NCBI GenBank assembly: GCA_022530585.1
Contig: CP092821.1
Location: 585,525-649,524 of the forward strand
Direction of reading: 5' to 3'
Length of the DNA stretch: 64,000 nucleotides
From: Candidatus Nealsonbacteria bacterium DGGOD1a
GTDB taxonomy: Bacteria > Patescibacteriota > Minisyncoccia > Minisyncoccales > UBA5738
Shown: positions 13,896 to 50,829 of the stretch, one piece after another
Numbering within the stretch: the first letter of the stretch is position 1
Layout of the letters: each line of letters begins with the position of its first letter
Position numbers and translations under genes: made by a program
The notes under the pieces: model-generated
What the model was told of the DNA's origin: nothing
Seen by the model: only the letters and a program-made list of their open reading frames with translations
Database searches by the model: none

Positions 13896-14010
13896 AAAAT
13901 ACATTGATGTCGGGGTATTAACCCCGCCATCGACCAAAGGATGTTTCCTTTGGAATTCTCATTCTTTTTGTTCCCCGCGGCAAGTTGACGAGGTATAAAA
14001 AGAATAAATC
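13896..14010 (-). repeat. Three-hairpin interspersed element, subfamily F1, copy A
   Basis: aaaaatacattgatgtcggggtattaaccccgccatcgaccaaaggatgtttcctttggaat.ctcattctttttgttccccgcgg..gctgacg.ggtataaaaagaataaat. The strand given is the G-U-compatible strand. Confidence 0.85.
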
Positions 14011-14015
14011 TCGCC

Positions 14016-14251
14016 ATGTATTTTGTCTACCTTATCCAATGCGGCGACGACAGTATTTACACCGGCATTGCCACGGATGTGACGCAACGGTTCGAAAAAC
14101 ACAAAAACAAAAATGGCGGACATTGTACCGCCAGCCGCGGGACAAAAAAATAATCTATTCCGAAAAATACGCCGCCCGGTTATTGGCCTCAAAGCGGAAA
14201 ACTGAAATCAAAAGCTGGGCTCGCGCAAGAAAACTTCGTTTGGTCAAATGA
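14016..14251 (+). pseudogene. Second GIY-YIG nuclease gene, frameshifted in an A7 run (14144-14150)
   Basis: Frame 1 reads MYFVYLIQCGDDSIYTGIATDVTQRFEKHKNKNGGHCTASRGTKK*. The next frame continues [29 protein letters not shown]. One extra A would restore it. Confidence 0.7.
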
Positions 14252-14255
14252 CATT

Positions 14256-16118
14256 ATGAAATCTTTGCTTAAACAATATTTTGGCTATGATGAGTTCCGG
14301 CCTTTGCAGGAGGAGATTGTCAATCACATCATTGCGGGAAACGATGCGTTTGTTTTGATGCCCACGGGCGGGGGAAAGTCGCTTTGCTATCAACTGCCCG
14401 CGCTAAAATTCGCGGGGCTGACCTTGGTGATCTCGCCTTTGATCGCCTTAATGAAAGACCAAGTGGACGCGCTGAAAACCAACGGCGTGGACGCGGAATT
14501 CATAAATTCATCGCTGTCGCCAAAGCAAACCGCGGAAGTTTTTGGCCGCGTTAAAAGCGGCGCGGTTAAAATTTTATATGTTGCGCCGGAAAGATTTGCT
14601 TTGAGCGCCTTTCAGGAATTTTTAAAAAGCTTGAATATCAGTTTGATCGCGGTGGACGAAGCGCATTGCATTTCCGAATGGGGCCATGATTTCCGGCCCG
14701 ATTACCGCCATTTGAGCCGACTCAAAGAACTTTTCCCAACGGTACCGCTGGTGGCCCTAACCGCCACGGCCACCAAAAAAGTGCGCGAAGATATTGCCGG
14801 CCAGCTGCAATTGCGAAGCGCGCGAGTTTTTGTTTCCAGTTTCAACCGCGAAAATCTGCATCTGCGGGTGGTCGAAAAGAAACAAGCTTTTCCGAAATTG
14901 CTGAATCTTCTGCAAAATTACCGCGATGAACCGGCAATCATCTACTGTTTTTCGCGCCGGGAAACCGAAGAAATCGCCCAGGATTTGCGCGCGCACCGAT
15001 TCAAAGCCGAAGCCTACCACGCCGGATTGAGCGCCAAGGATCGCAACCGAACGCAAGAACTGTTTATTAAAGACGAGATAAGCGTGATCGTAGCCACGAT
15101 CGCTTTCGGCATGGGCATCGACAAGCCGGATGTGCGATTGGTGGTGCATTATACTTACCCCAAAACCCTTGAGGGTTACTATCAAGAAATCGGCCGCGCC
15201 GGGCGCGACGGCCTGGCCAGCGAATGCGTTTTGTTTTACACCTATGCCGATACCCGGAAACACGAATTTTTCATCAACCAAATCGAAGACGGCGACGCGC
15301 AAAAACGAGCGATGGCTAAATTGCGCGAGGTAATGAATTATGCCGAATTGAGTTCTTGCCGGAAAAAATATATTTTAAGATATTTTGGCGAAGATCTTGC
15401 GGCCGATAACTGCCAAGGATGCGATGTTTGCGTCGAGAAAAACGCGGCCAAAACAACCCCGGCGGGAAATGACCGAAACTTCGACGGCACAATTGTCGCC
15501 AAAAAGATTATTTCAGCCGTTATCCGGCTTCATGGCCGCTTCGGTAAAAATTATGCGGCCGATGTCCTGTTGGGAAAAAGAACCCAAAAGATAACGGCAA
15601 ACCGGCACAACCGGCTTTCGGTATATGGAATTGTCGGCGATTTTTCAAAAAACGAACTTCTGCAAATTATGGATCAACTGGTGAATCTGGGTTTGCTGGC
15701 AAGGAAAGAAGGGCTTTACCCGGTTTTATCGGCCACCCGGAAGGGATTGATTTTCGCGCAAGGCGGCGAACGGCTTGAATTGCGAAAATTGATTGAAAAA
15801 GAAACCGAACCCGCCAATATCCCAGAAACCAAAAAAGACAACGCCGCTTTCAATCGGGAACTGTTCGAAAAACTGCGCGCTTTGCGCAAGGAACTGGCCG
15901 ATAAAGCCGGCGTACCGCCATTTGTTGTTTTCAGCAATGTATCGCTTCAGGAAATGGCTTATTATTTGCCGCAAACCACCGACGATTTCGGCCGCATCAA
16001 CGGCGTGGGCGCAATGAAGCAGAAACAATTCGGAAAGATATTTCTTGCCGCGATAAACAAATTTGCCAAAGAAAACAATACCGGCGGAATAAAAAATACA
16101 TCGATGTCGGGGTATTAA
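14256..16118 (+). CDS. recQ: ATP-dependent DNA helicase RecQ
   Basis: [29 protein letters not shown], the zinc motif CRK...C..CDVC, and a C-terminal HRDC-like region. Confidence 0.9.
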
Positions 16119-16195
16119 CCTCGCCATCGACCAAAGGATGTTTCCTTTGGAATCCTCATTCTTTTTGTTCCCCGCGGCGAGCTGACGGGTAAAAA
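16091..16195 (-). repeat. Three-hairpin element, subfamily F1, copy B (overlaps the recQ 3' end)
   Basis: Same consensus as copy A. The last recQ codons (KNTSMSGY*) and the stop are read from the element. Confidence 0.85.
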
Positions 16196-16240
16196 AACAG
16201 CATATGAACGCGGCCGGTGGCAATCGCCATTTGCCACGGC

Positions 16241-16392
16241 AACCCCTCACTGGGAATGGAATTTCAAGGGTCTATCCCTCGTTAATGCGAGGGTTAGACC
16301 CTTGAAATTCACCCCGAATGCTTTCTTGCCAGGGTCTAACCCCTGCGATTACACAGGGGATAGACCCTTAAAATACAAACTCCAGTGAGTGG
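16241..16392. repeat. Composite palindromic element, family C, copy 1
   Basis: Termini aacccctcactggg / ccagtgagtgg enclose two hairpins, gggtctatccctc..gagggttagaccc and gggtctaacccctg..caggggatagaccc. Confidence 0.75.
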
Positions 16393-16428
16393 TTTTGCCA
16401 CGCTATCGACATTTTCAGGCAAATGTAT

Positions 16429-17557
16429 TATTGACCTTCGCATAATAACTTGACTATAATCGCCTTTGTGGGATAATGAAGGTATATGAAAAATCGTAAA
16501 TCTTCACCATCTTGCAAAAGCAAAGATGATCTTCAGAAAAGAAGAATCAAAGCGATAAAGCTTTGGGAAAAAGGCCAAACCCAATATAAAATCGCCAAAA
16601 AACTGGGAGTCAGTTTTGAAGCGGTGAGCAATTGGGTGGAAGCATACAAAGCCCAAGGATGGGATGGCCTGAAAAGCAAAGGCAATCCCGGGCCGGATTC
16701 CAAATTGACCCAAGAGGAAAAACGCGAAATCAAAAAAGCGATCCTCAAAGGAGCGCAAAAGCAGGGATATGCCACCGATCTTTGGACGCTGGCAAGACTG
16801 CGAGATCTGATCAAAAAGATATCGGGAACAAAATATCACCCCGGCCATGTCTGGAGGGTGGTAATCTCGCTGGGTTTTACCAGCCAAAAACCCGAAATCA
16901 AAGCCAAAGAAAGAGATGAGAAAGCCATCAAAACTTGGAGAGTAAAAACCTTTCCAAGGTTAAAAAAAATGGGCGCAAAAACATCATTTTAAGCTGGGAT
17001 TCCATGATGAATCGGGAATTTCCGACCGCCCCACGGTCAGAAAAACCTGGGCGATTAAAGGCAAAACGCCGGTAATCAAATCCACCGGATCGTGGGCCGC
17101 AATGAGTTTGACGGCAACGCTGGTTTGCGCGCCGGCAGGAAGCAATCCGGCGATGTTTTTGAAAAGCAAAAAAGGAAGCGTCAAAAAAGAAGATGTGCTT
17201 GTATATTTAAAATTATTAAAATACTGGTTTAAGGGAAAAAGATTGCTTCTTTTCTGGGATGGATTGGCGGCACATCGCGCCAAGATCGTCAAAGAATATT
17301 TAAAAACTCAAAAATACTGGTTGCGAGTTGAGAGATTTCCGGCCTACGCGCCCGAGCTTAATCCCGTTGAATATTTTTGGGCGGCGATGAAAAACAAATA
17401 TGTCTGCAACTTGCGGCCGCAAGGCCTGCCCGCCCTGGGGCGGGCGGTCAAATCCGGCAAACGCAAGATCGCCGGAGACAAAGAATTAATGAAAGGATTT
17501 TTAAAGGCTTCCGAATTATATTGATATGATAGTCAATCTATTATGCGAAGGTCAATA
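16429..17557 (+). mobile_element. IS630-family insertion sequence (~1.13 kb)
   Basis: 19-bp perfect TIR: tattgaccttcgcataata at 16429-16447, and its reverse complement at 17539-17557. Encloses the transposase. Confidence 0.85.
16486..17524 (+). CDS. IS630-family DDE transposase in two frames, joined at the A8 run 16962-16969
   Basis: N-terminal HTH (QYKIAKKLGVSFEAVSNWV). The second frame reads FHDESGISDRP...LFWDGLAAHRAK...APELNPVEYFW. The join needs +1 slippage, or one A fewer. Confidence 0.8.
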
Positions 17558-17652
17558 GTATAAAAAAATTTAAAACCGCAAAACAAAAATTCAGTGCCGG
17601 ATTAACCCTGACGATCGGGCAATGAATTATGTGGCGCAGTCAACGGAAAAAT

Positions 17653-19587
17653 ATGAAGAATAAAATTGCCTTATTGGCAGCCTGTTTACTGACAATCGCC
17701 GGATCGGCGTTGGCCGAATCCGATAACGCCATTCTTTTATCTCCCCAATCTGATTCGCAAGCCTTTATCAACGAATCGAATAACGGCGGTGAATATATCG
17801 CCGATGAAATAATCGTTAAATTCAAGGGCGACAAAACCGATTTTAGAGTTCTTAAGGTTGCCCGAGGCCTAGTGGGAACCATAATAAAAGAATACCTCAA
17901 ACATGCCGATGTGGAATACGCCGAACCCAATTACATCGCGCACGCCCTGATGGTTCCCAATGATTCCCTATACAAATACCAATGGAATTTCGGCAGTTCA
18001 GATAAAAACGGGATCAATATGGAAAAAGCATGGAATATCACCGCGGGCGATAATTCAGTAATCGTGGCCGTGGTGGACACCGGGATCGCCTATGAAACTT
18101 ACGGAAAATTTTGCCAAGCGCCGGATATGGCCCAAACCCGTTTTACCGCCGGTTACAATTTCGTTTCAAATACCGCGCACGCCAATGACGATCAAGGTCA
18201 CGGCACGCATGTTGCCGGAACAATCGCCCAGAGTACCAATAACTCTCTGGGAACTTCCGGCATCGCATTCAATACCACATTGATGCCGGTGAAAGTTTTG
18301 AATAGTTCGGGCAGCGGTTCTTACTCGACGATCGCCAATGGCATTCGTTATGCCGTCGACCACGGCGCCAAAGTAATCAACTTAAGCTTGGGCGGGAGCA
18401 AAAGCAACACGACCCTGAAAAACGCGATAAAATACGCCTACGACAAGGGCGTAACGGTAGTGGCGGCTTGCGGCAACGACAATGCCAGCGGTTGCCTGTA
18501 CCCCGCCGCTTACAGCGACTATGTCATTTCAGTGGGCGCCACTCAATATGACGGCACCAAAGCCCCCTATTCGAACTACGGCTCCAATTTGAACATTGTC
18601 GCGCCGGGAGGCAACACTAAGGTTGATCTGAATAACGATGGCCAAAAAGACGGAATTTTACAGCAAACCATTACCGACTCCAGCAATGTTTGCAGTTTCA
18701 ACTATTACCTCTATCAGGGAACTTCGATGGCCACGCCCCACATCGCCGGTATTGCCGCCCTGTTGCTCGCCAAGGGCAACGCCACCACGCCCGACCAGAT
18801 AAAAACCGCGATTGATTCGACGGCCAAAGATTTGGGTGCGGCCGGCAAAGACAAAACTTACGGCTATGGTTTGGCCGATGCCTATGCGGCATTGCAATGG
18901 CCCGACAACGGCCAACCAGAATGCAGTGTTGACGGTGATTGCAACGATGGTTTGAATTGCAACGGCATCGAAACCTGCCAAACCGGAAAATGCGTTGCCG
19001 GAACTGCCGTTAATTGCTCCTCGTTAACCGACAAATGCAACACCGGTACCTGTATCGAATCAAGCGACGCTTGCGGCGCAACCCCGAAAACCAACGGAAC
19101 TTCCTGCGATGATGGGATTTACTGCAACGGATCAGAAACCTGCCAAGCCGGAACCTGCACCGTGGGCGGCGCGGTAGTTTGCAACGACAACAGCGATTGC
19201 ACCAGCGACAGTTGCAGTGAAACAACAAAGTCTTGTTCATATATCGCCAAAAGCGACAACACCATCTGCGATTCCGGAATTTGCTGTGCCGGATCATGCA
19301 AACCCGGCATCGCGGCTTGCTCGACCGCGACAACCTGTTGGAACGGAACAAACCAGTATTTAAGCTTGGCAACGGCGCAATTCAAAAAATTCTGCAAATG
19401 CGCGCAAGGAACCTATGCCTATAAAAACTACAAATCGAGTTTTAGCCGGAAAACCGTGTGGAAATACGGCAATACCGGCGACAACGAGATATGGACCGTT
19501 TCGTCAGCAACATCGCTCAGCCCGGTCTACAGCGTAACATGCAACGACAACAAAGCCTATCTTACCAGCCAAACTTACGCCAGGTAG
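17653..19587 (+). CDS. Secreted S8 subtilisin-like serine protease with a Cys-rich C-terminal repeat region
   Basis: Signal peptide. VAVVDTGI, HGTHVAG and GTSMATPH catalytic motifs. Repeated CxDGxxCNGxETC modules. The track start at 17629 is also possible. Confidence 0.85.
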   Translation: MKNKIALLAACLLTIAGSALAESDNAILLSPQSDSQAFINESNNGGEYIADEIIVKFKGDKTDFRVLKVARGLVGTIIKEYLKHADVEYAEPNYIAHALMVPNDSLYKYQWNFGSSDKNGINMEKAWNITAGDNSVIVAVVDTGIAYETYGKFCQAPDMAQTRFTAGYNFVSNTAHANDDQGHGTHVAGTIAQSTNNSLGTSGIAFNTTLMPVKVLNSSGSGSYSTIANGIRYAVDHGAKVINLSLGGSKSNTTLKNAIKYAYDKGVTVVAACGNDNASGCLYPAAYSDYVISVGATQYDGTKAPYSNYGSNLNIVAPGGNTKVDLNNDGQKDGILQQTITDSSNVCSFNYYLYQGTSMATPHIAGIAALLLAKGNATTPDQIKTAIDSTAKDLGAAGKDKTYGYGLADAYAALQWPDNGQPECSVDGDCNDGLNCNGIETCQTGKCVAGTAVNCSSLTDKCNTGTCIESSDACGATPKTNGTSCDDGIYCNGSETCQAGTCTVGGAVVCNDNSDCTSDSCSETTKSCSYIAKSDNTICDSGICCAGSCKPGIAACSTATTCWNGTNQYLSLATAQFKKFCKCAQGTYAYKNYKSSFSRKTVWKYGNTGDNEIWTVSSATSLSPVYSVTCNDNKAYLTSQTYAR

Positions 19588-19600
19588 AAATTAACCAACA

Positions 19601-19633
19601 AAAACCGCGGGTTTGCCTTTCCGCGGTTTTTGT
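19601..19633 (+). terminator. Rho-independent terminator
   Basis: accgcgg-gtttgccttt-ccgcggt followed by tttttg. Confidence 0.7.
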
Positions 19634-19963
19634 TGTAAAAAAACATTAATAACGGAAATTGTTCTTGATACTTTTTTTGATACGGTAAAAACGATTCCAC
19701 TTTGCCGGCGATTTATGTCGTTATTGAACTCGAGAAATATAAATTTGGCGCCGCGGTTTCCGGTTTATGCGCCGGCGCTCGGCTCCCGCAAGATAAAAAA
19801 TATCGCCGCGGCCATCGCTATACCGTTGGAAATCGGTTTAATCGCGGGTTTGGTGATTCAATCCCTTCCTTAAATCGTGATAATTTGCAATAATGTAATC
19901 AATCGCGCCGCGACAAAATCATACGGCATAATTTTAGCAAACAATGAATACCTTGTCGCTTTA

Positions 19964-20098
19964 AAAATCAAAAATATATTTTCCAAATGTATTTCGTCGA
20001 GCGGAGTATGAACCCCGCACGACGACCAAAGGGGGCACCCCTTTGGAATCCTCTTGGTGTACCCCGGGGCAAAGCCCCGAGGTATTGCACTCAATAAA
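19964..20098 (-). repeat. Three-hairpin element, subfamily F2, copy E
   Basis: aaaaatatattttccaaatgtatttcgtcgagcgg.gtatgaaccccgcacgacgaccaaagggggcacccctttggaatcctcttggtg.accccggggcaaagccccgaggtattgcactcaataaa. Confidence 0.85.
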
Positions 20099-20121
20099 AC
20101 AAAACAATCATAATCAAAAAA

Positions 20122-20490
20122 ATGGACCAAAAAAAACTGGAAAAATTTAAAGACATTCTAACCAAAGAAAAAATCGAGATTACCGCGGAATTGAACAAGA
20201 TCGCGACACAAAGTAAAACCGACCCCAAGGAATGGATAACCAACTTCACCGGCAACGCCAATGATACCGGCCACGAATCACTGGAAATTAAAGCCGATGA
20301 AGTCGAAGAATACGGCAGCGATGTCGCCATTACCAAGCGAATGGCGCAAAAACTGGCCGATATCGACTTGGCTCTGGATAAAATTGAAAAAAAAGTTTTC
20401 GGCAAATGCGAAGATTGCGGCAAAGATATTCCCATCCAAAGACTGGAAGCTTTCCCAACCGCGCGTTTTTGCACCGAATGCGGCAAATAG
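20122..20490 (+). CDS. DksA/TraR-family C4 zinc-finger protein
   Basis: CEDCGKDIPIQRLEAFPTARFCTECG. Confidence 0.75.
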   Translation: MDQKKLEKFKDILTKEKIEITAELNKIATQSKTDPKEWITNFTGNANDTGHESLEIKADEVEEYGSDVAITKRMAQKLADIDLALDKIEKKVFGKCEDCGKDIPIQRLEAFPTARFCTECGK

Positions 20491-20496
20491 AAACCA

Positions 20497-21162
20497 ATGA
20501 ATAAAAGATCGGTAAAAATTTTAGTTCTCGCGGTTGTTGCGGCAATCATTATCGGCGCGATTTTTTGGGCTATCCGGCCAAAATCCGCTTTAGCTCCCGC
20601 GCCCGGCCCGAATCTGGCATCGTCGGAAACCGCCATATCCGCCAATGCGTCATCATCGCAAACGATCGCGAAACTGGAAACACAAACAGCGGACTGGCAG
20701 TTTTACTCCAACAGCGAACGCGGTTTTTCTTTTAAATATCCGGTGGATTTCGGCGCCAATGTCTGGAAACCTGAAATTTGGCCGCCCGCGGTAACCGTAG
20801 TTGGCGCGAATATCGATCCGATCGAAGCCGGTTGCCCGAATTTACAAAAATCATCCGATGACGCACCGGCTAAAAATTCAAGCGCGACCCCCTACGGAAT
20901 CCCTTATTCTCTCTATATCGGCAGCAATATCGGTGCCGGCCAGCTCTATTCGGAATACTGCTATGTAATCGCCGATAAACAAGGCGGCAATATTGTCATT
21001 GATTTTCTCGTTCATTCCCATACCGGTTGCGGATTCGGCGGCTGTGGCGCCTATTGCGGCACGCAATACGAAAACGAATGCACAAATCTTAACCGGTTCA
21101 AAGACATAATTTCGCCGATCAGATCGATGGTAAACACTTTCTCGTTTGTTGCCAAAAATTAA
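20497..21162 (+). CDS. Membrane-anchored or secreted hypothetical protein
   Basis: N-terminal TM/signal segment; 221 aa. Confidence 0.55.
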   Translation: MNKRSVKILVLAVVAAIIIGAIFWAIRPKSALAPAPGPNLASSETAISANASSSQTIAKLETQTADWQFYSNSERGFSFKYPVDFGANVWKPEIWPPAVTVVGANIDPIEAGCPNLQKSSDDAPAKNSSATPYGIPYSLYIGSNIGAGQLYSEYCYVIADKQGGNIVIDFLVHSHTGCGFGGCGAYCGTQYENECTNLNRFKDIISPIRSMVNTFSFVAKN

Positions 21163-21274
21163 GATATTGAAAATCACACCGATAGAAAAATATTCCCGGC
21201 GCTCTTCCGGAATATTTTTTTAATTCTTTTCGTATTCCAACGCGAAAACTCAACTTATTGCGCCGGCATTTTAA

Positions 21275-22465
21275 TTGAAAATTATGAAAATCAATTATCA
21301 AAACGCAATTATAACAATAACAATCCTTTTGGGACTGGCGCTTGCCGCCACAATCGGTTTTTATTTAGGCGACAAAAAGCCCGGAGAATTAAAAAACACT
21401 CCCGAAACCGCCGAAAAGACTCAAATTGCGGATAATGAAACCGAAATCCCGGCAATTGAACAAAAATTTGAAAGTTCTTTGAACGAAGAACAAACCATTG
21501 CCGCGGCAACTTCAACGCCGGCGGCGAACAAAGAACCAAAATCGACCGAAACTTCAATAGCGGACGATGAAATTCCCTTGGAAAACGCCGAAAGGTTTGT
21601 AATTTCGATCGGCGCCAACGATATCGGCAAAGTTACGGCCGACCTGCTCGACAAGGGATTCATTAACGAACCGGAATCATTTAAAAAATTGATCGGCTCT
21701 TCAATTCTCGCATTCGTTCCGGGCGGCTACCGGCTTTCAAAAACAATGGCGGCTTCGCTTGTCGCCAAAACTTTGCAAAGCAAACCGTATATGGTCTGGA
21801 TAATCGTTCCCGAAGGTTTGCGAAAGGAAGAAACCGCCGATCTTTTGGCAAAAGATCTGGAATGGACTATTGATCAAAAAGAAAAATGGATAAAAGAGGA
21901 TACGGCGGCCGATAACGACTATTTTGAAGGCGTGTACTTTCCCGACACTTATCTGATTCCGGTCAATGAGGCACCCGTTGATGTCGCCAAACGATTGATC
22001 GCCAAATTCAATGAAAAATTCGCGCCCTACTTGCCGGAATTCAGCTGGCAAAACATAAAATGGACCACCGGCCTTAAATTGGCCTCGATCGTTCAAAGAG
22101 AAGCTGTCAACGCCGCGGATATGCCGCTTATCGCGGGCATTTTATGGAACCGCGTTGAGCAAGGAATGTCACTCGACGCCGACGCCACGCTTCAATACGC
22201 CCGCGGCGATACCGGTAACGGCTGGTGGGCGCCCGCCGCGGCTAAAGACAAGCAAATTGATTCGCCCTATAATACCTACACCAATAAAAACCTGCCGCCG
22301 CACCCGATCTGCAATCCGGGGATTTCCGCTATCGAAGCCACCCTGAATCCGGCCCAAACGGATTGTTTGTACTATCTGCATGACGGCAATCATTCCACGC
22401 ATTGCGCCAAAACCTACGAAGATCATCTTGAGAATATCCAAAAGTATTTAAAAAATCAAAATTGA
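21275..22465 (+). CDS. mltG: Endolytic murein transglycosylase MltG (YceG-like)
   Basis: ASIVQREA, LDADATLQY, SPYNTYTNKNLPPHPICNPG. Confidence 0.8.
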   Translation: MKIMKINYQNAIITITILLGLALAATIGFYLGDKKPGELKNTPETAEKTQIADNETEIPAIEQKFESSLNEEQTIAAATSTPAANKEPKSTETSIADDEIPLENAERFVISIGANDIGKVTADLLDKGFINEPESFKKLIGSSILAFVPGGYRLSKTMAASLVAKTLQSKPYMVWIIVPEGLRKEETADLLAKDLEWTIDQKEKWIKEDTAADNDYFEGVYFPDTYLIPVNEAPVDVAKRLIAKFNEKFAPYLPEFSWQNIKWTTGLKLASIVQREAVNAADMPLIAGILWNRVEQGMSLDADATLQYARGDTGNGWWAPAAAKDKQIDSPYNTYTNKNLPPHPICNPGISAIEATLNPAQTDCLYYLHDGNHSTHCAKTYEDHLENIQKYLKNQN

Positions 22466-22544
22466 GGCCGCATCGAAAGCGAATCGCCGAGATTTGATTT
22501 TGAGATTTAATTTGCGTGATTCGCTGAAAAAGTAGTATAATTAT

Positions 22545-22690
22545 TTTATTGAGCGCGATGTCTCGGGGTTTTGCTCCGGGGTGCGCCAAAAGGATTCCTC
22601 GGGTAACCCGCAAGTACTCTCGTGAAGGAATCTCCCTTTGGCCGCAAGATCGGGGTTAACGCCCCGATCGCGGACTCAAGCGGACTCAAA
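22545..22690 (+). repeat. Three-hairpin element, divergent subfamily F3, copy I (with an inserted extra hairpin)
   Basis: ttattgagcgcgatgtctcggggttttgctccggggtgcgccaaaaggattcc[34-nt insert]tccctttggccgcaagatcggggttaacgccccgatcgcgg. A TATAAT at 22537-22542 lies just upstream. Confidence 0.7.
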
Positions 22691-22799
22691 TTGAAAATAT
22701 AAAATTTATCGCGCAGATAACAATTGGATTTGCCGCGTGATAATTTTTCCCGGATATTAAAAAACCGGAAAAATATCGCTTGGTAAATTTAATAAGAAA

Positions 22800-23117
22800 A
22801 TGACAAAATCGACAAAGATAATCATCGCGGTAGTTATTACCACGATTGTCGTAATCGGCGCATTGGCGCTGACTGGACCCCGCGGCGAAAACAACCAACC
22901 AGTCGTAACGACACCGCCAACCAATGACGAGCCCGCCAATGTTCAGTCGGAAACTCCGCCGGCGGCCACAACCGGCGAAAATCAAATCCTCGAAACCGAA
23001 ACCACCATTGATGAAGACTTAGCCGATATTGACGCGCGAATGACCGGCCTGAACGAAGATAACGCCAATATCGAAACCGGGCTTAACGACGCTTCCGGAG
23101 ATACTATCGTCAAATAA
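22800..23117 (+). CDS. Small membrane-anchored protein
   Basis: 105 aa with an N-terminal TM segment and an acidic/Thr-rich tail. Confidence 0.5.
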   Translation: MTKSTKIIIAVVITTIVVIGALALTGPRGENNQPVVTTPPTNDEPANVQSETPPAATTGENQILETETTIDEDLADIDARMTGLNEDNANIETGLNDASGDTIVK

Positions 23118-23131
23118 CCACCAATAAAACC

Positions 23132-23971
23132 ATGTCCAATAAAAAAATTATAATTGCGTTAGCCGTGCTGGCAATACTGTCGTCAACCCAAAACGCCGCC
23201 GCGATTTCAATGAACGAATTGCCGGCAACCCGGGGCAACGCGGCAACCTCGACCGATATGACCAAAAATAGAGGCGCAAACGACAACGGACGAAACGCGC
23301 TTTCAAAGATACAAGAAAGAGGCGGCGAAGAAATCGACCGGCGGGTTGAGTCGTTGAATAAATTGGAAGAACGGGTGCGATCAATGATAAAAATAAACGA
23401 CAGCCAAAAAAACGCGATTATCGCGCAATTACAAACGCAGATCGAGTCGCTGAACGCGCTTAAAGCCCGGATCGCGGCCGGGACAAGCGCGAGCACCACT
23501 TTGGAAAACGAAAAGAAGATAACCAAAGAGTTCCGCGTTTATGCCCTGACGATTCCGCGGGGGTACATCATCGCCGCGATCGACCGAATCGACAATATGG
23601 CCCAGAAATTGCAAGGTTTGAGCGATAAACTCGCGGCCAAAATTACGGAAACCAAACCCGATAACGCGGCCAAGCTGCAAGAAAGCGTTGCCGATATGAA
23701 TACCCGAATCGCCAACGCCAGAACGCAAGTGATGGCGGCGCAAGCAAAAGTTGAAAATTTAAAACCGGACAACGGCGATGAGGCAATCGCCAAATCAAAT
23801 CAGGAAGCTTTGATCGCCGCCAAAGGATTGGTAAAGACCGCCACAAATGATTTGAATTACGCGCGCAATGCCGCCAACGCCCTCGCCAAAGAACTAAGAA
23901 AACTGGGAATCAAAACAAATGTCGGCTTTGGCGCCGCCACCACAACCGCCTCGACCACGACAGAATTATAA
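23132..23971 (+). CDS. Secreted coiled-coil-type hypothetical protein
   Basis: Signal peptide, Ala/Lys/Asn-rich helical repeats; 279 aa. Confidence 0.55.
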   Translation: MSNKKIIIALAVLAILSSTQNAAAISMNELPATRGNAATSTDMTKNRGANDNGRNALSKIQERGGEEIDRRVESLNKLEERVRSMIKINDSQKNAIIAQLQTQIESLNALKARIAAGTSASTTLENEKKITKEFRVYALTIPRGYIIAAIDRIDNMAQKLQGLSDKLAAKITETKPDNAAKLQESVADMNTRIANARTQVMAAQAKVENLKPDNGDEAIAKSNQEALIAAKGLVKTATNDLNYARNAANALAKELRKLGIKTNVGFGAATTTASTTTEL

Positions 23972-24095
23972 AAATACCCAATATCAAAAATCCCGCCACG
24001 CGGGATTTTTGATATACCCGTTGTTTGATTTGTCGTTTCGAGTTCTTGGAGTTATTATGGAACCATAACCCCGCGCTTGCGGGGAAATTATTTGC

Positions 24096-25871
24096 ATGAA
24101 CGATTATCCTGAAGTTACGACAAAAATGGTTCTCGCCGAATTCTGGAAAGGAGTCAAGCCGCACAAACGGTTGTTTTGGGGCAGTTTAATCTGCTTTTCA
24201 ATCAGTTTTGCCATAAATGTTTTTGTACCGATATTTTACAAAGATTTTTTTGACACTCTGGAATCATTTTCCGATAAAAACGAAAGCACCCCCATATTGA
24301 TACGGATCATATCAATTATCGCTCTGTTGCATTCTATTAATTGGGTTTTCGGACGAATATCGGTATTGATGGCGAATCGACTTGAAGCAAAAGTGTCTTC
24401 TCTTTTAAAACAAAATTCTTTTAATTATTTGATATTGCACTCGCGCAATTTTTTCGCGAACAATTTTTCGGGAAGTCTGGTACAGAAAATCAACCGCTTC
24501 AGCCGTTCATTTATCAGAATTGCCGATGCCGCTTTTTTTGAGTTTCTTCAATTATTGATCACGGGAATTGGAGCGATTATAATCACATCATTTATTTCGC
24601 CGATGATTTCCCTGATAATCACCGGCTGGATAATTATATTTGCAGCCTTTAATATTTTATTTCAAGTGCGCGTCAAAATTAAATACGATATCGCCGCCGC
24701 CGCCGCGGATTCTAAAACAACCGGACTTCTTGCGGACAACATTACCAATTACAGCCCGATTTCCCTGTTCAACGGTTATAAACGCGAATCGGCGCTATTA
24801 AAGGAAACCGTTAACGATCAAGCGAGAAAATTATGCTTTTCATGGGATTTATGGATTGTTATTAATGCCATCCAAATCGCGTTAACTTATACGATCGAAT
24901 TTTTCATATTCTATTACGGCATTATTTTCTGGCGGCAAGACCTGATCACGGCAGGCACATTTGTTTTGATGCAAATTTACATTATCGGAATCGCGCAGCA
25001 ATTCTGGGGATTGAATCGAACCGTGCGCGAGGTTTATGAAAGTATCGCCGATTCCAAAGAAATGGTGGAGATTATGGCTTTGCCGCACGAAATCAAGGAT
25101 GTGGCCGCGGCAAAGGAATTAAAAGATGTTGAAGGGGGTATCGAATTCAAAGAAGTTAATTTCAGCTTCAACGAAACTCGCAGTGTTTTAAAAGATATCA
25201 ATTTGGTTATCAGCGCCGGAGAAAAAGTTGCCTTGGTTGGGCCGTCGGGAACCGGCAAAACCACATTCACGGGATTGCTTTTGCGGCTTTTTGATCCAGC
25301 CGGCGGCGCGATTTTCATTGACGGACAAAATATCCATAATGTCACCTTGGAAAGCTTGCGCGCGAGTATCAGCCTGGTGCCGCAGGATCCGGTTTTATTC
25401 CACCGAACGATTATGGAAAACATCCGCTATGGAAAACCTCAAGCAACCGACAAAGAGGTGATTACCGCGGCCAAACTCGCTCATTGCGATGAATTTGTCG
25501 ATTCAATGCCATTGAAATACGAAACATTGGTGGGAGAACGAGGAGTCAAACTTTCCGGCGGCGAGCGCCAGCGCGTCGCCATTGCCCGCGCCATTCTGAA
25601 GAACGCGCCGATATTGGTGCTGGATGAAGCCACTTCCAGCCTTGATTCGCAATCCGAAATGCTGATTCAGGACGCCTTGGACAAATTGATGTCCAGATGC
25701 ACCACCATCGCCATCGCGCACCGCTTGAGCACAATCCGCAAAATGGATCGCATCATCGTAATGGACAATGGCACTATCATCGAACAAGGCACGCACCAAG
25801 GTTTGATCCGCAGAAAAGGAGGTATCTACAAAAATCTCTGGTCCCTCCAAGCCGGCGGCTTTATCGAATAA
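24096..25871 (+). CDS. ABC exporter, fused permease and ATPase (MsbA-like)
   Basis: Six TM helices. GPSGTGKT, LSGGERQRVAIARA, LVLDEATSSLD. Confidence 0.9.
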   Translation: MNDYPEVTTKMVLAEFWKGVKPHKRLFWGSLICFSISFAINVFVPIFYKDFFDTLESFSDKNESTPILIRIISIIALLHSINWVFGRISVLMANRLEAKVSSLLKQNSFNYLILHSRNFFANNFSGSLVQKINRFSRSFIRIADAAFFEFLQLLITGIGAIIITSFISPMISLIITGWIIIFAAFNILFQVRVKIKYDIAAAAADSKTTGLLADNITNYSPISLFNGYKRESALLKETVNDQARKLCFSWDLWIVINAIQIALTYTIEFFIFYYGIIFWRQDLITAGTFVLMQIYIIGIAQQFWGLNRTVREVYESIADSKEMVEIMALPHEIKDVAAAKELKDVEGGIEFKEVNFSFNETRSVLKDINLVISAGEKVALVGPSGTGKTTFTGLLLRLFDPAGGAIFIDGQNIHNVTLESLRASISLVPQDPVLFHRTIMENIRYGKPQATDKEVITAAKLAHCDEFVDSMPLKYETLVGERGVKLSGGERQRVAIARAILKNAPILVLDEATSSLDSQSEMLIQDALDKLMSRCTTIAIAHRLSTIRKMDRIIVMDNGTIIEQGTHQGLIRRKGGIYKNLWSLQAGGFIE

Positions 25872-25894
25872 AACCTGAACCTTGAATCTTAACC

Positions 25895-26375: not shown

Positions 26376-26469
26376 TAACCTCCTTCCTCATTTTCTAAAT
26401 TTTTTGGAAACTGGATTGGAGGTTTTTTGTTACATTGATTCTTTATATTTTTCGCCTAATCAAAGGTTT

Positions 26470-26746
26470 TTTGAAAAATGCGCTGATTTTGGTGTTGGAT
26501 GAAGCCACTTCAAGCCTGGACTCGCAATCAGAAATGCTCATTCAGGACGCCCTAAACAAGTTGATATCCAGATGCACCACCATCGCCATCGCGCACCGTC
26601 TCTCCACCATCCGCAAAATGGACCGGATCATCGTAATGGACAACGGCGCCATCGCCGAACAAGGCACTCACGCCGGCCTGCTTCGCAAAAAGAAAAGTAT
26701 CTATAAAACCCTCTGGTCCCTCCAAGCCGGCGGCTTTATCGAATAA
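26470..26746 (+). pseudogene. Orphan 3' fragment of a paralogous ABC exporter gene (Walker B to C-terminus only)
   Basis: Roughly 85% nucleotide identity by eye to 25592-25871, with the last ~37 nt identical. It lacks the N-terminal ~490 codons. Confidence 0.8.
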
Positions 26747-27126
26747 ACTATTGTCAACTTATATCTTCGTTTGAAGTCGTTTCTCAACTGATCTTCAAGG
26801 CGCAAATGTTGATAGTTATGTATTGCAACTTGCATTTCACAGGTTGCATTCCACAACTTGCATTTGATATTTCCTTATTAAAAATCCGCTTATTTATCCC
26901 ACATTTTCAGCTATCGCTAAATTTGTAGGATATTTGGTGCTTCTAAATTTTGCGGTCGCAAAAATTAGCAACATTGCTCTTTTTTTAAAATACAGATACC
27001 AAGACTTGCATAGGCCCAGTATCTGAAACTTTTCCGTAAATTGCTAAACCGCGGATTTTCCATATCTATTGAAAATTAAACAATTTCTGATAGATTTAAA
27101 TCGGTTCTTAAGAACCGGTGATTTAA

Positions 27127-29776: not shown

Positions 29777-29911
29777 AAAATCAAAAATATATTTTCCAAA
29801 TGTATTTCGTCGAGCGGGGTATGAACCCCGCACGACGACCAAAGGGGGCACCCCTTTGGAATCCTCTTGGTGCACCCCGGGGCAAAGCCCTGAGGTATTG
29901 CACTCAATAAA
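29777..29911 (-). repeat. Three-hairpin element, subfamily F2, copy F
   Basis: Near-identical to copies E and H. Confidence 0.85.
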
Positions 29912-32173: not shown

Positions 32174-32310
32174 TTTATTGAGTGCAATACCTCGGGGCTT
32201 TGCCCCGGGGTGCACCAAGAGGATTCCAAAGGGGTGCCCCCTTTGGTCGTCGTGCGGGGTTCATACCCCGCACGACGAAATACATTTGAAAAATATATTT
32301 TTGATTTTTT
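32174..32310 (+). repeat. Three-hairpin element, subfamily F2, copy G (opposite orientation to E, F and H)
   Basis: Reverse complement of the F2 consensus. Hairpin 3 is perfectly paired here (gtcgtgcgggg/ccccgcacgac). Confidence 0.85.
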
Positions 32311-40093: not shown

Positions 40094-40096
40094 AAT

Positions 40097-40212
40097 AAAA
40101 AATACATTGATGTCGGGGTATTAACACCGCCATCAACCAAAGGATGTTTCCTTTGAAATCCTCATTCTTTTTGTTCCCCGCAGCGAGCTGACGGAGTATA
40201 AAAAGAATAAAT
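40097..40212 (-). repeat. Three-hairpin element, subfamily F1, copy C
   Basis: Matches the F1 consensus and starts 4 nt after the peptidase stop codon. Confidence 0.85.
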
Positions 40213-42518: not shown

Positions 42519-42617
42519 TAAACTACGAAATGATTTGTATTTTGGGGTCTATCCCCTGTGTAATCGCAGGGGTTAGACCCCTTTAAAAGTATTTTGAATT
42601 TAATGATTTCGTAATTT
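42519..42617. repeat. MITE family A, copy 2
   Basis: aaactacgaaatg ... gatttcgtaattt flank the perfect hairpin ggggtctatcccctg-tgtaatcg-caggggttagacccc. Confidence 0.7.
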
Positions 42618-47145: not shown

Positions 47146-47146
47146 T

Positions 47147-47488: not shown

Positions 47489-47493
47489 TCCGC

Positions 47494-47630
47494 AAAAATC
47501 AAAAATATATTTTCCAAATGTATTTCGTCGAGCGGGGTATGAACCCCGCACGACGACCAAAGGGGGCACCCCTTTGGAATCCTCTTGGTGCACCCCGGGG
47601 CAAAGCCCCGAGGTATTGCACTCAATAAAA
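47494..47630 (-). repeat. Three-hairpin element, subfamily F2, copy H
   Basis: Near-identical to copy F. Confidence 0.85.
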
Positions 47631-47670
47631 AAATGGCGCGCCAAACGCTGTTTTTTGTTATAATAAAATC

Positions 47671-48330
47671 ATGAAAATCAAGGATTTGACAAAAGTTGAC
47701 CGGCCGCGGGAAAAACTGGAAAAATACGGAACCGCAAAATTGGCGGATTATGAACTGCTGGCGATTTTGCTCGGGTCGGGGATCAAGGGATTGAATGTGA
47801 TCGCGCTTTCGAAAAGGATATTGAAACTTATTGACAAGGTTGGCATCGATAAAATCACCCTTGAAAACTTGCTTAAAGAACGCGGCCTTGGCAAGGCCAA
47901 GGCAATGCAAGTGATCTCGGCCTTGGAATTCGGCAAACGGATCAATTCAGGAGAAAAACCGGAAATTTTGACCGCCGAAGATGTTTGGAAATTGTGCGGT
48001 GATTTTCGCGGCTCCAAAAAAGAACATTTTGCGGCGTTTTATCTGGACACGCAAAGCAAACTGATTGAACGCCAGATAATCTCCATCGGCACTTTAAACG
48101 CCAGCCTGGTCCACCCCCGCGAAGTCTTTGAACCCGCGGTTGGGTTGCATGCCGCCAACATAATCGTGGCGCACAACCACCCCAGCGGCGTTTTGGAACC
48201 CTCCGGCGACGACCTTGCCATCACCAAGCGCCTGTCGGAATCCGGAAAAATCATGGGCATTGCGCTGATTGACCATATCATCATCGCCAACGCCAAATTT
48301 TCAAGCTTCAAAAACAAAAATCTGATTTGA
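47671..48330 (+). CDS. radC: RadC-family JAB-domain protein
   Basis: PREKL, ELLAILLGSG and HNHPSG motifs. Confidence 0.85.
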   Translation: MKIKDLTKVDRPREKLEKYGTAKLADYELLAILLGSGIKGLNVIALSKRILKLIDKVGIDKITLENLLKERGLGKAKAMQVISALEFGKRINSGEKPEILTAEDVWKLCGDFRGSKKEHFAAFYLDTQSKLIERQIISIGTLNASLVHPREVFEPAVGLHAANIIVAHNHPSGVLEPSGDDLAITKRLSESGKIMGIALIDHIIIANAKFSSFKNKNLI

Positions 48331-48341
48331 CAGCGTTTGGG

Positions 48342-48361
48342 ATGTACATTATTATGTACAT
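48342..48361. promoter_or_regulatory. Twin palindromic operator upstream of the Phd/RelE pair
   Basis: ATGTACAT-tatt-ATGTACAT, overlapping a TATAAT at 48361-48366. Confidence 0.45.
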
Positions 48362-48375
48362 ATAATACAAAATGC

Positions 48376-48711
48376 ATGAATGCCAAAAATACAATATCAA
48401 TCTCCGAAGCAAGAAAAAGAATCTTTGAAATCGCCAAAGAAGTCCAAAAGCCGGACAAATATTACACCTTGACCGAAAAAGGCAAACCCAAGGCGGTTTT
48501 GATGTCGGCCGATGAATTTGACTCGATTATGGAAACAATTGACATATTAAGCGATCCCGATATTCTGGACAGTATAAAGAAAGCGGAGGAAGAATATCGG
48601 AAAGGCGAATATAAAACATGGGATGAGTTGAAAATAGATATCGGGGCGAGCAAAGAAATGGAGCCGGCAGCGGTTTGCGAAAATCCGAAAAGAAAATACC
48701 ATGCGAAATAA
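48376..48711 (+). CDS. Phd/YefM-family antitoxin
   Basis: ISISEARKRIFEIAKEV...YTLTEKGKPKAVLMSADEFDSIMETIDIL. Confidence 0.75.
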   Translation: MNAKNTISISEARKRIFEIAKEVQKPDKYYTLTEKGKPKAVLMSADEFDSIMETIDILSDPDILDSIKKAEEEYRKGEYKTWDELKIDIGASKEMEPAAVCENPKRKYHAK

Positions 48712-48958
48712 CTATCGGATTATCGTCCCGAAATCAGTGATTAAAGATATAAATTCAATTCCGCTTCCATGGAAGGAACGCGTAATCAAAGCGATCGATT
48801 TGCTGCCGCAAAACCCATTTATGGGTGAAAAATTATGGGGAAAGCTGAAAGGCAAGCGCAAAATCAGGATATATCCTTACCGGATAATTTATGAAATTAT
48901 CAATAAAAACCGCATAATCTTGATCCTTGAAGCCGGCCACCGCCAAGGCATATATTAA
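48701..48958 (+). CDS. RelE/ParE-family toxin
   Basis: 85 aa. Overlaps the antitoxin by 11 nt. KIRIYPYRIIYEI...ILILEAGHRQ. Confidence 0.75.
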   Translation: MRNNYRIIVPKSVIKDINSIPLPWKERVIKAIDLLPQNPFMGEKLWGKLKGKRKIRIYPYRIIYEIINKNRIILILEAGHRQGIY

Positions 48959-48969
48959 TTTTTAAAAAT

Positions 48970-49239
48970 ATGTACTCATCTCAAACTGATTGCGGTTCGA
49001 CAGTAAGTTGCGGAACCGACCTTGATACCGGTTGGTTCGTGAAAGACCTCAACGACCGCGCCGACCGGATCAAACATCTTGAATTTCACATTGAGCACGG
49101 CGATTATTTCGCGGTTCTGGCAACCATCATCAATATCGCCCTGAAAGAAAAAGATTTCGACCGCGAGAAAATCTTCAAAAATCTCTTCGACGATCTGGAA
49201 TATCTGCAAGAAAATTACGACATCGTGAAAAGATTATAA
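48970..49239 (+). CDS. Hypothetical protein (89 aa)
   Basis: ORF only. Confidence 0.45.
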   Translation: MYSSQTDCGSTVSCGTDLDTGWFVKDLNDRADRIKHLEFHIEHGDYFAVLATIINIALKEKDFDREKIFKNLFDDLEYLQENYDIVKRL

Positions 49240-49317
49240 AACGGTCTGGCGCGGTTGCGAGCCAAACGGATTGTTTTTTGCTATAATAAATCCAGAGAAT
49301 AATAAACATAAAAAAAT

Positions 49318-49650
49318 ATGAATATCTTAATCAATTGGCTGGTGATGACGGTCGCGGTTATCGTTTCGGCTTATATTCTGCCCGGGGTTACGCTGTCGGG
49401 ATTTTGGGCCGCGCTTTTAGTGGCGCTCGTTCTTGGATTGCTGAATGTTTCCATAAAACCTCTGCTTCTAATCCTCACCCTGCCGATCAATATCTTAACT
49501 TTGGGATTGTTCACGCTGGTCATCAACGCGCTGATCATTATGATGGCTTCGGCCATTGTCCCGGGTTTCAAGGTTAATGGTTTCTGGTATTCCATGCTTT
49601 TCAGCGTCGTGCTTTCGATTGTCTTGTACTTGATAAACAAAGCAAAATAA
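49318..49650 (+). CDS. Four-TM membrane protein (phage holin family IV / DUF360-like)
   Basis: NWLVMTVAVIVSAYILPGV...NALIIMMASAIVPGF. Confidence 0.65.
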   Translation: MNILINWLVMTVAVIVSAYILPGVTLSGFWAALLVALVLGLLNVSIKPLLLILTLPINILTLGLFTLVINALIIMMASAIVPGFKVNGFWYSMLFSVVLSIVLYLINKAK

Positions 49651-49815
49651 GGGCGTTGCCGAAGCGACAATGGCAAAATTGTCCGGAATGTCTTTGACCA
49701 AAGTTTTTGAAGGTCCGTATCGGGCCGCAGCCCGAAATGCGCCAAAACCTACGGCAAAAATTATGCGGCGCTTTTCGTGTTCGTGTAAATCCGCCGGCTC
49801 CCGGCGAACAAATCA

Positions 49816-50703
49816 ATGATTTTAAAAAAGCCCCACATTCCAATTTTTTTGGCAATAATGGCTTTTTTCGGGTATTGCCCGGGAACAATCCAGGCTTTTG
49901 ATTGGCCGGCCGGCGCGGCGCTGATTCAAAGAATCCAAGTCCTTAAACAAGAAATCTACAACGCAAAAATGCTGATCGTGAGCGCGAAATCAAAGAAACC
50001 CAACACCGCCCAAGCCTATCTGGCGATGGATTTAACGAACGGCGCGGCGCTTATGGTAAAAAATCCCGACAAAGCCTATCCGATCGCTTCCACCGCCAAA
50101 TTGATGACCGCCGTTATCGCCTCGGAAAATATCGATTCCGAAAAAACGATAGCTCTGACCAAGGATATGCTTTCTCCCGAAGGAAGCAGCCCGGCCATTT
50201 TTGCCGGCTTAAACATCAGCGCGAAAAATCTTTTGCAAGCCAGCCTGATCCAATCGACCAACGATGCCGCCGAGTCGCTGTCTTATTTCATCGGCCGGGA
50301 AAAATTCCTGGCGCTAATGAACCAAAAAGCCAAAGAGATTGGAATGGCGCGCACCTTTTTCGCCGATGTTCACGGATTGGACAAGCAAAATCTCTCCACC
50401 GCTCGCGATATGGCCAAGCTTTTAACTTATATCCGCAAAAACAATCCTAAAATTCTGGAAGCCACGAAGAACAATAATTTTTGGCTGCCGGACGCGCAAG
50501 GCAAACTGCTCCGGTTTATGAATCTGAATAATTTTTACGGCTTGCCCGAATTTGCGGGCGGGAAAAGCGGCTATTCTCCCGAAGCCCGGCAAACCTTCGC
50601 CGGAATTTTCAACATCAACAATAAACCGATCGCCATTGTTTTGCTCCGCTCAACCGATTTTCAATCCGATACATTCAAAATCATCGAACGGCTAAAAAAT
50701 TGA
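49816..50703 (+). CDS. D-alanyl-D-alanine carboxypeptidase (S11 family)
   Basis: SxxK motif IASTAKLM; SxN motif QSTND; KSGY. Confidence 0.75.
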   Translation: MILKKPHIPIFLAIMAFFGYCPGTIQAFDWPAGAALIQRIQVLKQEIYNAKMLIVSAKSKKPNTAQAYLAMDLTNGAALMVKNPDKAYPIASTAKLMTAVIASENIDSEKTIALTKDMLSPEGSSPAIFAGLNISAKNLLQASLIQSTNDAAESLSYFIGREKFLALMNQKAKEIGMARTFFADVHGLDKQNLSTARDMAKLLTYIRKNNPKILEATKNNNFWLPDAQGKLLRFMNLNNFYGLPEFAGGKSGYSPEARQTFAGIFNINNKPIAIVLLRSTDFQSDTFKIIERLKN

Positions 50704-50715
50704 ATATAAAAACAA

Positions 50716-50829
50716 AAAAATACATTGATGTCGGGGTATTAACCCCGCCATCAACCAAAGGATGTTTCCCTTGACATCCTCATTCTTTTTGTTCCCCGCG
50801 GCGAGCTGACGGGGTATAAAAAGAATCAA
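50716..50829 (-). repeat. Three-hairpin element, subfamily F1, copy D
   Basis: Matches the F1 consensus, 12 nt after the carboxypeptidase stop. Confidence 0.85.

Follow-up and report, generated by a model that had tools for sequence, protein, structure and literature searches.

We describe a family of short interspersed DNA elements found in a 64-kb stretch of the genome of Candidatus Nealsonbacteria bacterium DGGOD1a (contig CP092821.1, positions 585,525 to 649,524). This whole stretch is referred to here as the window, and coordinates are counted from its first nucleotide. It holds nine copies of an element of 110-160 nt with three hairpins each. The copies are most probably non-autonomous, gene-less miniature derivatives of IS200/IS605 insertion sequences, resembling the palindrome-associated transposable elements (PATEs) and moved in trans as single-stranded DNA. 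As a set, the elements show the architecture of the IS200/IS605 family: a motif adjacent to the insertion (TAM), a motif at the element end (TEM), subterminal hairpins and no target duplication. A first-pass annotation of the window had left two readings side by side, a mobile element active as single-stranded DNA and a structured RNA family. The former is supported, in its IS200/IS605 version, because empty sites lack a duplication, flanks and ends carry motifs, the hairpins covary and the 5' half is similar to the ends of elements encoding a Y1 transposase. A stand-alone structured RNA gene is not needed to account for the data, and it is disfavoured because orientation relative to genes is random and copies are present or absent between related genomes. 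The elements could still be used as RNA in addition to transposition.

The layout proposed by the first-pass annotation was recovered. On one strand, called here the top strand, it comprises a short outer stem enclosing a first hairpin (H1), the conserved linker (A)GAGGATTCC, a second hairpin (H2), TCG, a third hairpin (H3) capped by GGGGTT.A..CCCC, and a T-rich tail. The copy number is equally firm, since a repeat search and an nhmmer profile (E-values of 1e-9 to 7e-19) agree on nine copies in the 64 kb and none beyond. The repeat search separated a set of four copies, F1, with 83-93% identity to the reference copy, from a set with 96-99% identity and one inverted copy, F2. F3 is a single copy, recognised by reading the sequence.

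Insertion sites and element boundaries

One contig (L054) of a Minisyncoccales metagenome-assembled genome (MAG) is syntenic with window positions 15048-25880 at 86-91% nucleotide identity, and provides an empty site for copy I, the F3 copy. In the contig, ...TTTTATT is followed directly by GTACAGATAAC. In the window, ...TTTTATT is followed by the element (GAGCGCG...AAAATTTATC) and then by GCGCAGATAAC, which makes a clean pair of empty and filled sites. A search with joined flanks gave a second pair, where L092 is empty (...TTTAAAT followed by TGCACACGG) and L057 is filled (...GGTAAAT, then the element CTAATATT...GGTTGATT, then TGCAAACGG). In a third pair, L072 against L053, the junction is less clean. 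At none of the three pairs is the target duplicated: the flanking bases are single, and the empty sites stop in TTTATT or TTTAAAT precisely at the junction.

The boundaries are marked by recurrent motifs. TT(T/G)ATT stands directly 5' of eight of the nine window copies, and the left-flank profiles of the individual families are TTNAAT, TNGATT, TTGATT and TTTATT, overall TT(G/T/A)ATT-like or TTNAAT. At the 3' end the elements terminate, depending on the family, in TTGATT, TTTATT or TTTATC. In copies of the Binatia type the 3' end always reads CTTGATT, whatever the left flank (TAGATT, TTGATT, TCGATT, TACATT and others), so the two do not represent a duplicated target. Terminal inverted repeats are absent, since the 5' ends (CTTTTTATAC, GAGTGCAAT or CTAATATT) and the 3' ends (..TTGATT or ..TTTATT) are not reverse complements. 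The hairpins are subterminal, H1 starting 9-13 nt from the 5' end and H3 ending 12-30 nt from the 3' end. An IS608-like pairing of the flank and end motifs with the bases 5' of the hairpin feet was looked for by eye, and no consistent pattern emerged.

These boundaries bear on the notion that the elements are classical miniature inverted-repeat transposable elements moved by a DDE transposase. A potential source of such an enzyme is present in the window, where an IS630-family element (16426-17560), with helix-turn-helix (HTH) and DDE_3 open reading frames (ORFs) and 35-nt inverted repeats, adjoins copy B. The three-hairpin elements, by contrast, run from GAGTGC... to ...TTGATT without inverted terminal repeats, do not resemble the IS630 inverted repeats (TATTATTGACCTTCGCATAATAAC), and show neither a TA nor any other target duplication at the three empty sites. 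We consider an origin of this kind extremely improbable. The IS630 element itself is rejected as the mobiliser for want of inverted repeats and of a duplication, and the empty-site junctions contradict a role for it.

Folding and covariation

All three subfamilies fold well, with shuffle z-scores of -5.4 (F1), -7.2 (F2) and -2.7 (F3). Among 158 distinct copies, Watson-Crick pairs occupy 91% of the H1, H2 and H3 positions. The H1 position 21/28 swaps freely (GC 49, CG 47, AT 31), and in H3 the pair 83/104 occurs as GC (80) or CG (48) and the pair 84/103 as AT (53), CG (50), GC (20) or TA (17). One H3 position carries a recurrent mismatch (G.A 29, G.T 15, also T.T). When 28 diverse copies were compared with column shuffles, paired cells amounted to 90% against 82.5% and double-change cells to 62 against 21, values that none of 500 shuffles reached in either case. 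The covariation score was 0.242, against 0.111 in shuffles and at most 0.076 with slid partners. The compensatory stem changes claimed in the first-pass annotation thus stand for H1 and H3, and are clearer with the relatives from other genomes, while H2 is too invariant to be informative. Little variation is seen in H2, at the base of H1 or at the top of H3.

A second claim, that wobble pairs are strand-specific, was borne out in part. G.T outnumbers A.C on the top strand by 148 to 52 in the same 158 copies, in a count that is per copy, with copies that are not independent events and with 40 of the G.T pairs coming from one position in one family. In folding energy, the difference between the top and the opposite strand is clear for F3 alone (-61.0 against -53.2 kcal/mol), the gaps being small for F1 (-42.5 against -42.1 kcal/mol) and F2 (-66.6 against -64.4 kcal/mol). 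The excess of G.T suggests that the top strand is the strand that must fold. Two further structural ideas were rejected. A long-range pairing of CCCC 5' of H1 with GGGG of the linker, at which copies from the candidate phyla radiation (CPR) carry a CCTC/GAGG double change, found no statistical support (26 of 500 shuffles reach its score). A likeness of the GGGGTTCAAACCCC hairpin to tRNA or tmRNA was discarded, since ARAGORN found no such gene in the window and the loop is, by inspection, unlike a T-loop.

The strong covariation in H1 and H3 and the conserved unpaired junctions would also fit structured small RNAs transcribed on their own, or a cis-acting regulatory RNA, present in many copies and with structure selected at the RNA level only. 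The excess of G.U-compatible pairs on one strand and the fold of F3, better by 8 kcal/mol on the top strand, point in the same direction, and a role as RNA is known for IS200 leaders. We nevertheless hold this explanation to be very improbable. As the first-pass annotation had supposed, no named Rfam family is found at the elements, whether at the gathering score or at E <= 5. No covariance model, those of the IS605-orfB and HEARO motifs included, matches any element, a 24-bit SraC/RyeA match over copy C (E 1.4) being at chance level. In other genomes, copies are oriented at random with respect to the ORFs on either side (with E for the element, <E< 36, >E> 33, <E> 23, >E< 19). The identity of 96-99% within a subfamily is typical of recent amplification. 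Orthologous sites differ by the presence or absence of an element with precise boundaries, and flank and end motifs are accompanied by homology to insertion-sequence ends. Finally, no conserved promoter was seen upstream on reading the flanks, a reading that did not include a dedicated promoter scan.

Related elements carrying a Y1 transposase

The similarity to insertion-sequence ends emerged from metagenomes, which were scanned with the H1 hairpin of F2 not followed by the linker; the scan returned 21 contigs. L132 contains a whole element, consisting of the TAM, AATCAAAAGAAT, the hairpin CCTCGAGGCTCTGCCTCGGGG, AGAGGAAAG, two more hairpins, a tnpA ORF of 146 aa and a right end. The ORF matches Pfam Y1_Tnp at 5.5e-38. 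The right end of the element, ...GAT followed by the hairpin ACCTCGGGGCTTTGCCCCGGGGT and terminal TATTCATT, is common to L127, L129, L132 and L140, next to four different right flanks. The right-end hairpin of L132 (ATACCTCGGGGCTTTGCCCCGGGGT) is identical to H1 of F2 over 25 of 25 nt. Through the AGAGGA linker, the left end of L132 can be aligned to the 5' half of F2 (z 6.9) and to that of F1 (z 6.1), and none of 300 shuffles equalled these alignments. The z-score for F1 is somewhat inflated, as that alignment lies partly in the L132 flank (TTGATTTCTTTTT), while the alignment with F2 lies inside the true left end. The invariant top of H3 (CGGGG-loop-CCCCG), which in the window occurs inside the elements only, is also the top of the end hairpin of these insertion sequences. 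Moreover, the succession of H1, AGAGGA(T), second and third hairpin and T-rich stretch is paralleled at the left end and in the 5' leader of the insertion sequence.

Homologues of the L132-type TnpA are numerous, and fourteen more loci were fetched (L146-L159). The 12 of these that were displayed have the same ends, with the flank ..ATT, the end ATTCATT and a three-hairpin left end or leader. A second, degenerate tnpA element in L138 has the same right-end hairpin and ends in TATTGATT. The profile of the miniature element weakly matches both ends of the tnpA insertion sequences (E 0.004-0.05). These insertion sequences come from Bacteroidota-like and unassigned contigs, not from the genome of the window.

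Some further elements were observed in this material. A different gene-less element of ~190-230 nt has an IS200-type hairpin at both ends (L126, L128, L130, L131, L139, L143 and L145). Its layout is TTTATT in the flank, TACCCGCCAGAAT, a hairpin beginning ACCTCGGGGC, an interior, the hairpin ACCTCGTGGGCTCTGCCCCGAGGT and terminal AGTTTATT, and contigs often terminate within it. REP-like units of ~50 nt with a single hairpin, in which flanking TTTATT is followed by TA(A/C)CTGCCAGAAT, the hairpin ACCTCGGGGCTTTGCCCCGGGGT and terminal AGTTTATT, were seen in L133, L134, L137, L142, L144 and L135 (5830-5900). In L135 one such unit lies immediately 5' of a diverged three-hairpin copy. In L155-L158, an IS110-family transposase gene (DEDD_Tnp_IS110 and Transposase_20) is located ~1 kb downstream of the IS200-type tnpA.

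Repetitive extragenic palindromic sequences (REPs) are palindromes of 20-40 nt with a conserved 5' tetranucleotide, frequently found as inverted pairs on either side of the RAYT gene. One may ask whether the present elements belong to a system of this type, in which REP-like hairpin units, arranged in mosaics like the bacterial interspersed mosaic elements (BIMEs), are spread and maintained by a single-copy domesticated Y1 enzyme, the REP-associated tyrosine transposase (RAYT). Single-hairpin mini-units do exist in CPR metagenome contigs (flanking TTTATT, then TACCTGCCAGAAT, the hairpin and AGTTTATT), and one hairpin recurs in several different composite elements. JGI automatic names give some close TnpA homologues as 'REP element-mobilizing transposase RayT'. 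Since RAYTs are Y1 enzymes as well, most of the DNA-level evidence fits both possibilities. The transposase itself, however, sides with IS200: the L132 TnpA scores 132 bits against the NCBIfam equivalog transpos_IS200 (cut-off 55), but 24 bits against the RAYT model (NCBIfam REP_Tyr_transpos), under its cut-off of 80. In addition, the element in which this tnpA sits is multicopy, with four or more distinct right flanks. The repeated units are of 110-160 nt, with three hairpins and TAM/TEM-like ends, and single-hairpin units occur in other contigs only. A REP/RAYT origin is in our judgement improbable, and a miniature IS200/IS605 element remains the preferred interpretation.

Distribution beyond this genome

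One genome per species was scanned with a query made of the 3' arm of H2 and the top of H3. The element was found at at least 120 loci, in MAGs that represent no fewer than five lineages at phylum level. The hosts include Syntrophobacter, other 'Deltaproteobacteria', Thermodesulfobacteriota (Desulfobacterota), Candidatus Binatia, Chromatiales and other Gammaproteobacteria, Minisyncoccales and Saccharibacteria. Over these loci and the window, nhmmer gave 160 profile matches, nine of them in the window. All scan matches have a common layout: H1, the linker GGGGWWTCC, H2 (CCAAAGGGG..CCCCTTTGG), TCG, H3 and the tail. Numerous loci derive from one and the same MAG, which indicates that the element is multicopy there too, and the Minisyncoccales MAG JBARNX01 (L017, L038, L054) harbours near-identical copies of F1 and F2 type, so that it and the genome of the window are most likely related. 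A plasmid collection searched with blastn in distant mode returned only a chance 39-nt match in Xanthomonas mobC, and among viral contigs the pattern had no match.

Contigs of the same population, identified via flanking proteins, are 99.8-100% identical to the window, have every site filled and break at the elements. Three short-read contigs from JGI/Logan samples (L121-L123), with 99.97-100% identity to the window, likewise end in copies or a few tens of nt from them. The element thus fragments assemblies of this organism. Tandem, 5'-truncated and internally deleted copies were observed at L036 (4488-4668), L073 (4799-5029) and L035 (2075-2127). In the tandem arrays, the next copy begins right after the TTTATT end of the preceding one, and one deleted copy in this group is devoid of H2 and half of H3 with both ends kept.

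The nine copies and their setting

The coordinates of the copies were refined so that the left-flank target motif is left outside, and the strand given is that of the top strand. The F1 copies are A (13890..14002, -, 113 nt), with the left-flank motif TTTATT at 14003-14008; B (16088..16197, -, ~110 nt), whose 5' end is degraded and whose flank motif is not clear; C (40094..40205, -, 112 nt), flanked by TTTATT and situated between an S41 peptidase gene and rplI; and D (50711..50823, -, 113 nt), flanked by TTGATT. The four F2 copies are each of 127 nt and flanked by TTTATT: E (19966..20092, -), which terminates in TTTTTGATT, F (29779..29905, -), G (32180..32306, +), which starts 10 nt past the PCMT stop codon, and H (47497..47623, -). 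Copy I (F3, 22551..22710, +, ~160 nt) has TTTATT in its left flank, terminates in TTTATC and has an additional hairpin between linker and H2. Together the copies make up ~1.1 kb of the 64 kb, about 2% of the window, a high density in a CPR genome. They occupy short intergenic gaps. The end of recQ (ORF 14256-16118) falls within copy B, as had been noted at first pass, and its last ~10 codons together with the stop codon are covered by the 3' end of the element (16088).

Comparison with the syntenic contig L054 brought up two further observations. The ortholog of copy E (1366-1534 in L054) has an additional hairpin of ~25 nt (TTAGGTAATCCGCAAGTACTCTTGC) between linker and H2, a module also present in F3 and in Saccharibacteria copies. 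The difference could be due to an in-place indel, to conversion between copies or to repeated use of one target. Furthermore, a 3.9-kb segment of the window (16067-19862), comprising copy B, the IS630 element, an S8 subtilase gene (17629-19587) and a small ORF, is missing from L054, where 250 unrelated nt stand (1020-1269). Copies B and E bracket this segment, so the elements may mark hotspots of rearrangement or insertion.

The top strand is on the minus strand in seven of the nine copies, while 84% of the coding sequence in the window is on the plus strand. This had been taken for a strand bias, but the 7:2 split is not significant (two-sided binomial p ~0.18). GC skew, which the first-pass annotation proposed to compare with element orientation, is flat over the element-bearing part of the window. 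TnpB/IscB guide (omega) RNAs have their scaffold at the right end of an insertion sequence encoding TnpB or IscB, with the guide taken from the flank, and neither tnpB nor iscB was seen beside any copy. Among the neighbouring genes of the loci from other genomes, no transposase family is recurrent, and the commonest neighbour family, judged by sequence alone, resembles an ABC-type substrate-binding protein.

A possible mechanism and the evidence that weighs against it

By analogy with IS608 and ISDra2, a Y1 (HUH) TnpA encoded elsewhere in the genome would bind H1 and H3 on the top strand only, while that strand is single-stranded, for example in replication. The enzyme would cleave on the 3' side of both TAM and TEM, release a circle of single-stranded DNA and reseal the donor, and the circle would be pasted 3' of another TT(G/T)ATT site. 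As the TEM resembles the TAM, a new copy could land directly behind an old one, giving rise to the tandem and mosaic arrays at other loci.

Several observations weigh against the elements being IS200/IS605 derivatives. IS608 follows the orientation of the lagging-strand template, which predicts the top strand on the plus strand of the window if plus is the leading strand. Seven of nine copies have it on the minus strand instead, opposite to this rule. That plus is the leading strand is suggested by gene orientation and a weak positive GC skew. With n=9 and a direction of replication that is only suggested, this is a weak point. A search for tnpA in the window and in ~850 kb of loci bearing the element (8 kb each) yielded no such gene: an IS200 TnpA query gave no match, and the L132 TnpA as query matched L132 and L138 only. 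Nor was an autonomous element with both ends matching found among the insertion sequences, whose right ends carry an H1-type hairpin and not the full H3 with tail. The left-end hairpin of L138 (CGCGGCTCTGCCGCG) resembles the Binatia-type H1 without reaching significance (z 1.8), and the deltaproteobacterial, Binatia and Chromatiales families are linked to the insertion sequences by architecture and short motifs only. Lastly, the IS608/ISDra2 model has no need of the linker and H2, the most conserved part of the element. The core owes some of its apparent invariance to the search pattern itself, which fixed CCTTTGG and CGGGGTT.A..CCCCG.

The linker and H2 may be an inherited IS200 leader structure, or may reflect a second requirement at the protein or RNA level. 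Because the core is near-invariant from Patescibacteria to Proteobacteria and yet unneeded in the transposition model, one could also propose that the linker, H2 and the top of H3 have a second function, for example as a stand-alone omega-RNA-like guide or another trans-acting RNA scaffold that would work with a protein of TnpB/IscB type or of a new type, the copies being dispersed guide-RNA genes. We consider this unlikely.

If the nine copies are indeed miniature IS200/IS605 elements, then ~2% of the window and frequent contig breaks in the source metagenomes would be due to transposon debris and not to a new class of RNA. The case would also add a widespread, structurally defined miniature family to the IS200/IS605 group, in at least five phylum-level lineages that include the small CPR genomes. 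Such a family could be used as a marker of Y1-transposase activity, and in assembly and annotation. With their clean TAM/TEM boundaries and rich covariation, the copies would constitute a good natural data set on what the transposase recognises in an IS200/IS605 end.

Other features of the window

The inverted repeats of the IS630-family insertion sequence lie at 16426-16460 and 17526-17560 and are 89% complementary. The transposase is encoded in two parts, an HTH ORF (16486-16992) and a DDE_3 ORF (17102-17524), pointing to a frameshift or decay. A second small palindromic repeat, GGGTCTAACCCCTGCGATTACACAGGGGATAGACCC, occurs at 16332-16372 and 42540-42580 (95% complementary), with further sites at 16241-16278 and 16357-16394, and is unrelated to the three-hairpin element. 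Two known RNAs were detected above the Rfam gathering score. A LOOT RNA is located at 3299-3421 (+, 89 bits). A DUF3800-IX RNA at 53695-53758 (-, 50.7 bits) adjoins a DUF3800 gene within a type I restriction-modification locus (HsdM_N/N6_Mtase and Methylase_S matches on the same-population contig L124). A direct repeat of 279 nt with 84% identity (25594-25872 and 26469-26747) involves the 3' end of an ABC transporter gene (24096-25871), whose second copy forms a gene fragment (ORF 26435-26746). Finally, a 40-nt direct repeat, TAAAAATTTCAGAGGGGATGGCCTTTTGTTTGCAAAAAAA, with 98% identity (8917-8956 and 10102-10141), has the appearance of a terminator-like hairpin shared by the two sites.

Comparison with known systems

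Among the systems close to the window elements are the tnpA-only IS200 elements (L132 and L146-L159, with TnpA of 146-147 aa). They share with the window elements the hairpin that is identical to H1 of F2, the AGAGGA(T) that follows a hairpin, three successive left-end or leader hairpins with a T-rich stretch behind them, and the flank ..ATT with the end ..ATTCATT. The two differ in the place of the shared hairpin, which the insertion sequence has at its right end and the miniature element at its left, and in that nothing in the insertion sequence corresponds in sequence to H2 or to the lower stem of H3. With REP/BIME sequences and their RAYTs, the window elements share the character of intergenic hairpin repeats in mosaic units handled by a Y1 enzyme. 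They are, however, larger, with a fixed architecture and TAM/TEM-like boundaries, and the related transposase scores as IS200.

IS608 of Helicobacter pylori and ISDra2 of Deinococcus radiodurans differ from the window elements in that the latter contain neither a transposase nor a tnpB gene, and in that their orientation departs from the lagging-strand-template rule if plus is the leading strand. All insert 3' of a short T-rich motif, TTGAT in ISDra2 (PMC2806898) and TT(G/T)ATT here. ISDra2 requires 39 nt of its left end and 43 nt of its right end, with a hairpin in each, and acts strictly on single-stranded DNA (PMC2806898). The end hairpins of the window elements lie at similar distances from the ends, judged by the published description of ISDra2, and the activity on one strand known for ISDra2 and IS608 (PMC2806898) would by analogy apply to them too.

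Together with these IS200/IS605 models, the closest known parallel is provided by PATE-like elements without genes, whose ends are held in common with IS200/IS605 members. They have been described, as has the TAM/TEM concept (PMC10055086), and are known for example from Haloquadratum and Geobacillus stearothermophilus (PMC10055086; PMC3119063). Like PATEs, the window elements are short and gene-less, lack inverted terminal repeats and target duplication, and have subterminal hairpins, a conserved TAM and TEM, and a presumed mobilisation in trans, and their ends resemble in part those of tnpA insertion sequences. Unlike the described PATEs, which are lineage-specific, they have a fixed three-hairpin core, with H2 and the linker near-invariant across Patescibacteria, Desulfobacterota, Binatota and Gammaproteobacteria, and no autonomous partner matching at both ends was found for them. 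A description of the family was not found in the IS200/IS605 literature, in a search aimed at IS200/IS605 biology and not at this family. The kind of element is already known, while the family itself, with its fixed three-hairpin core common to distant phyla, seems not to have been described before.

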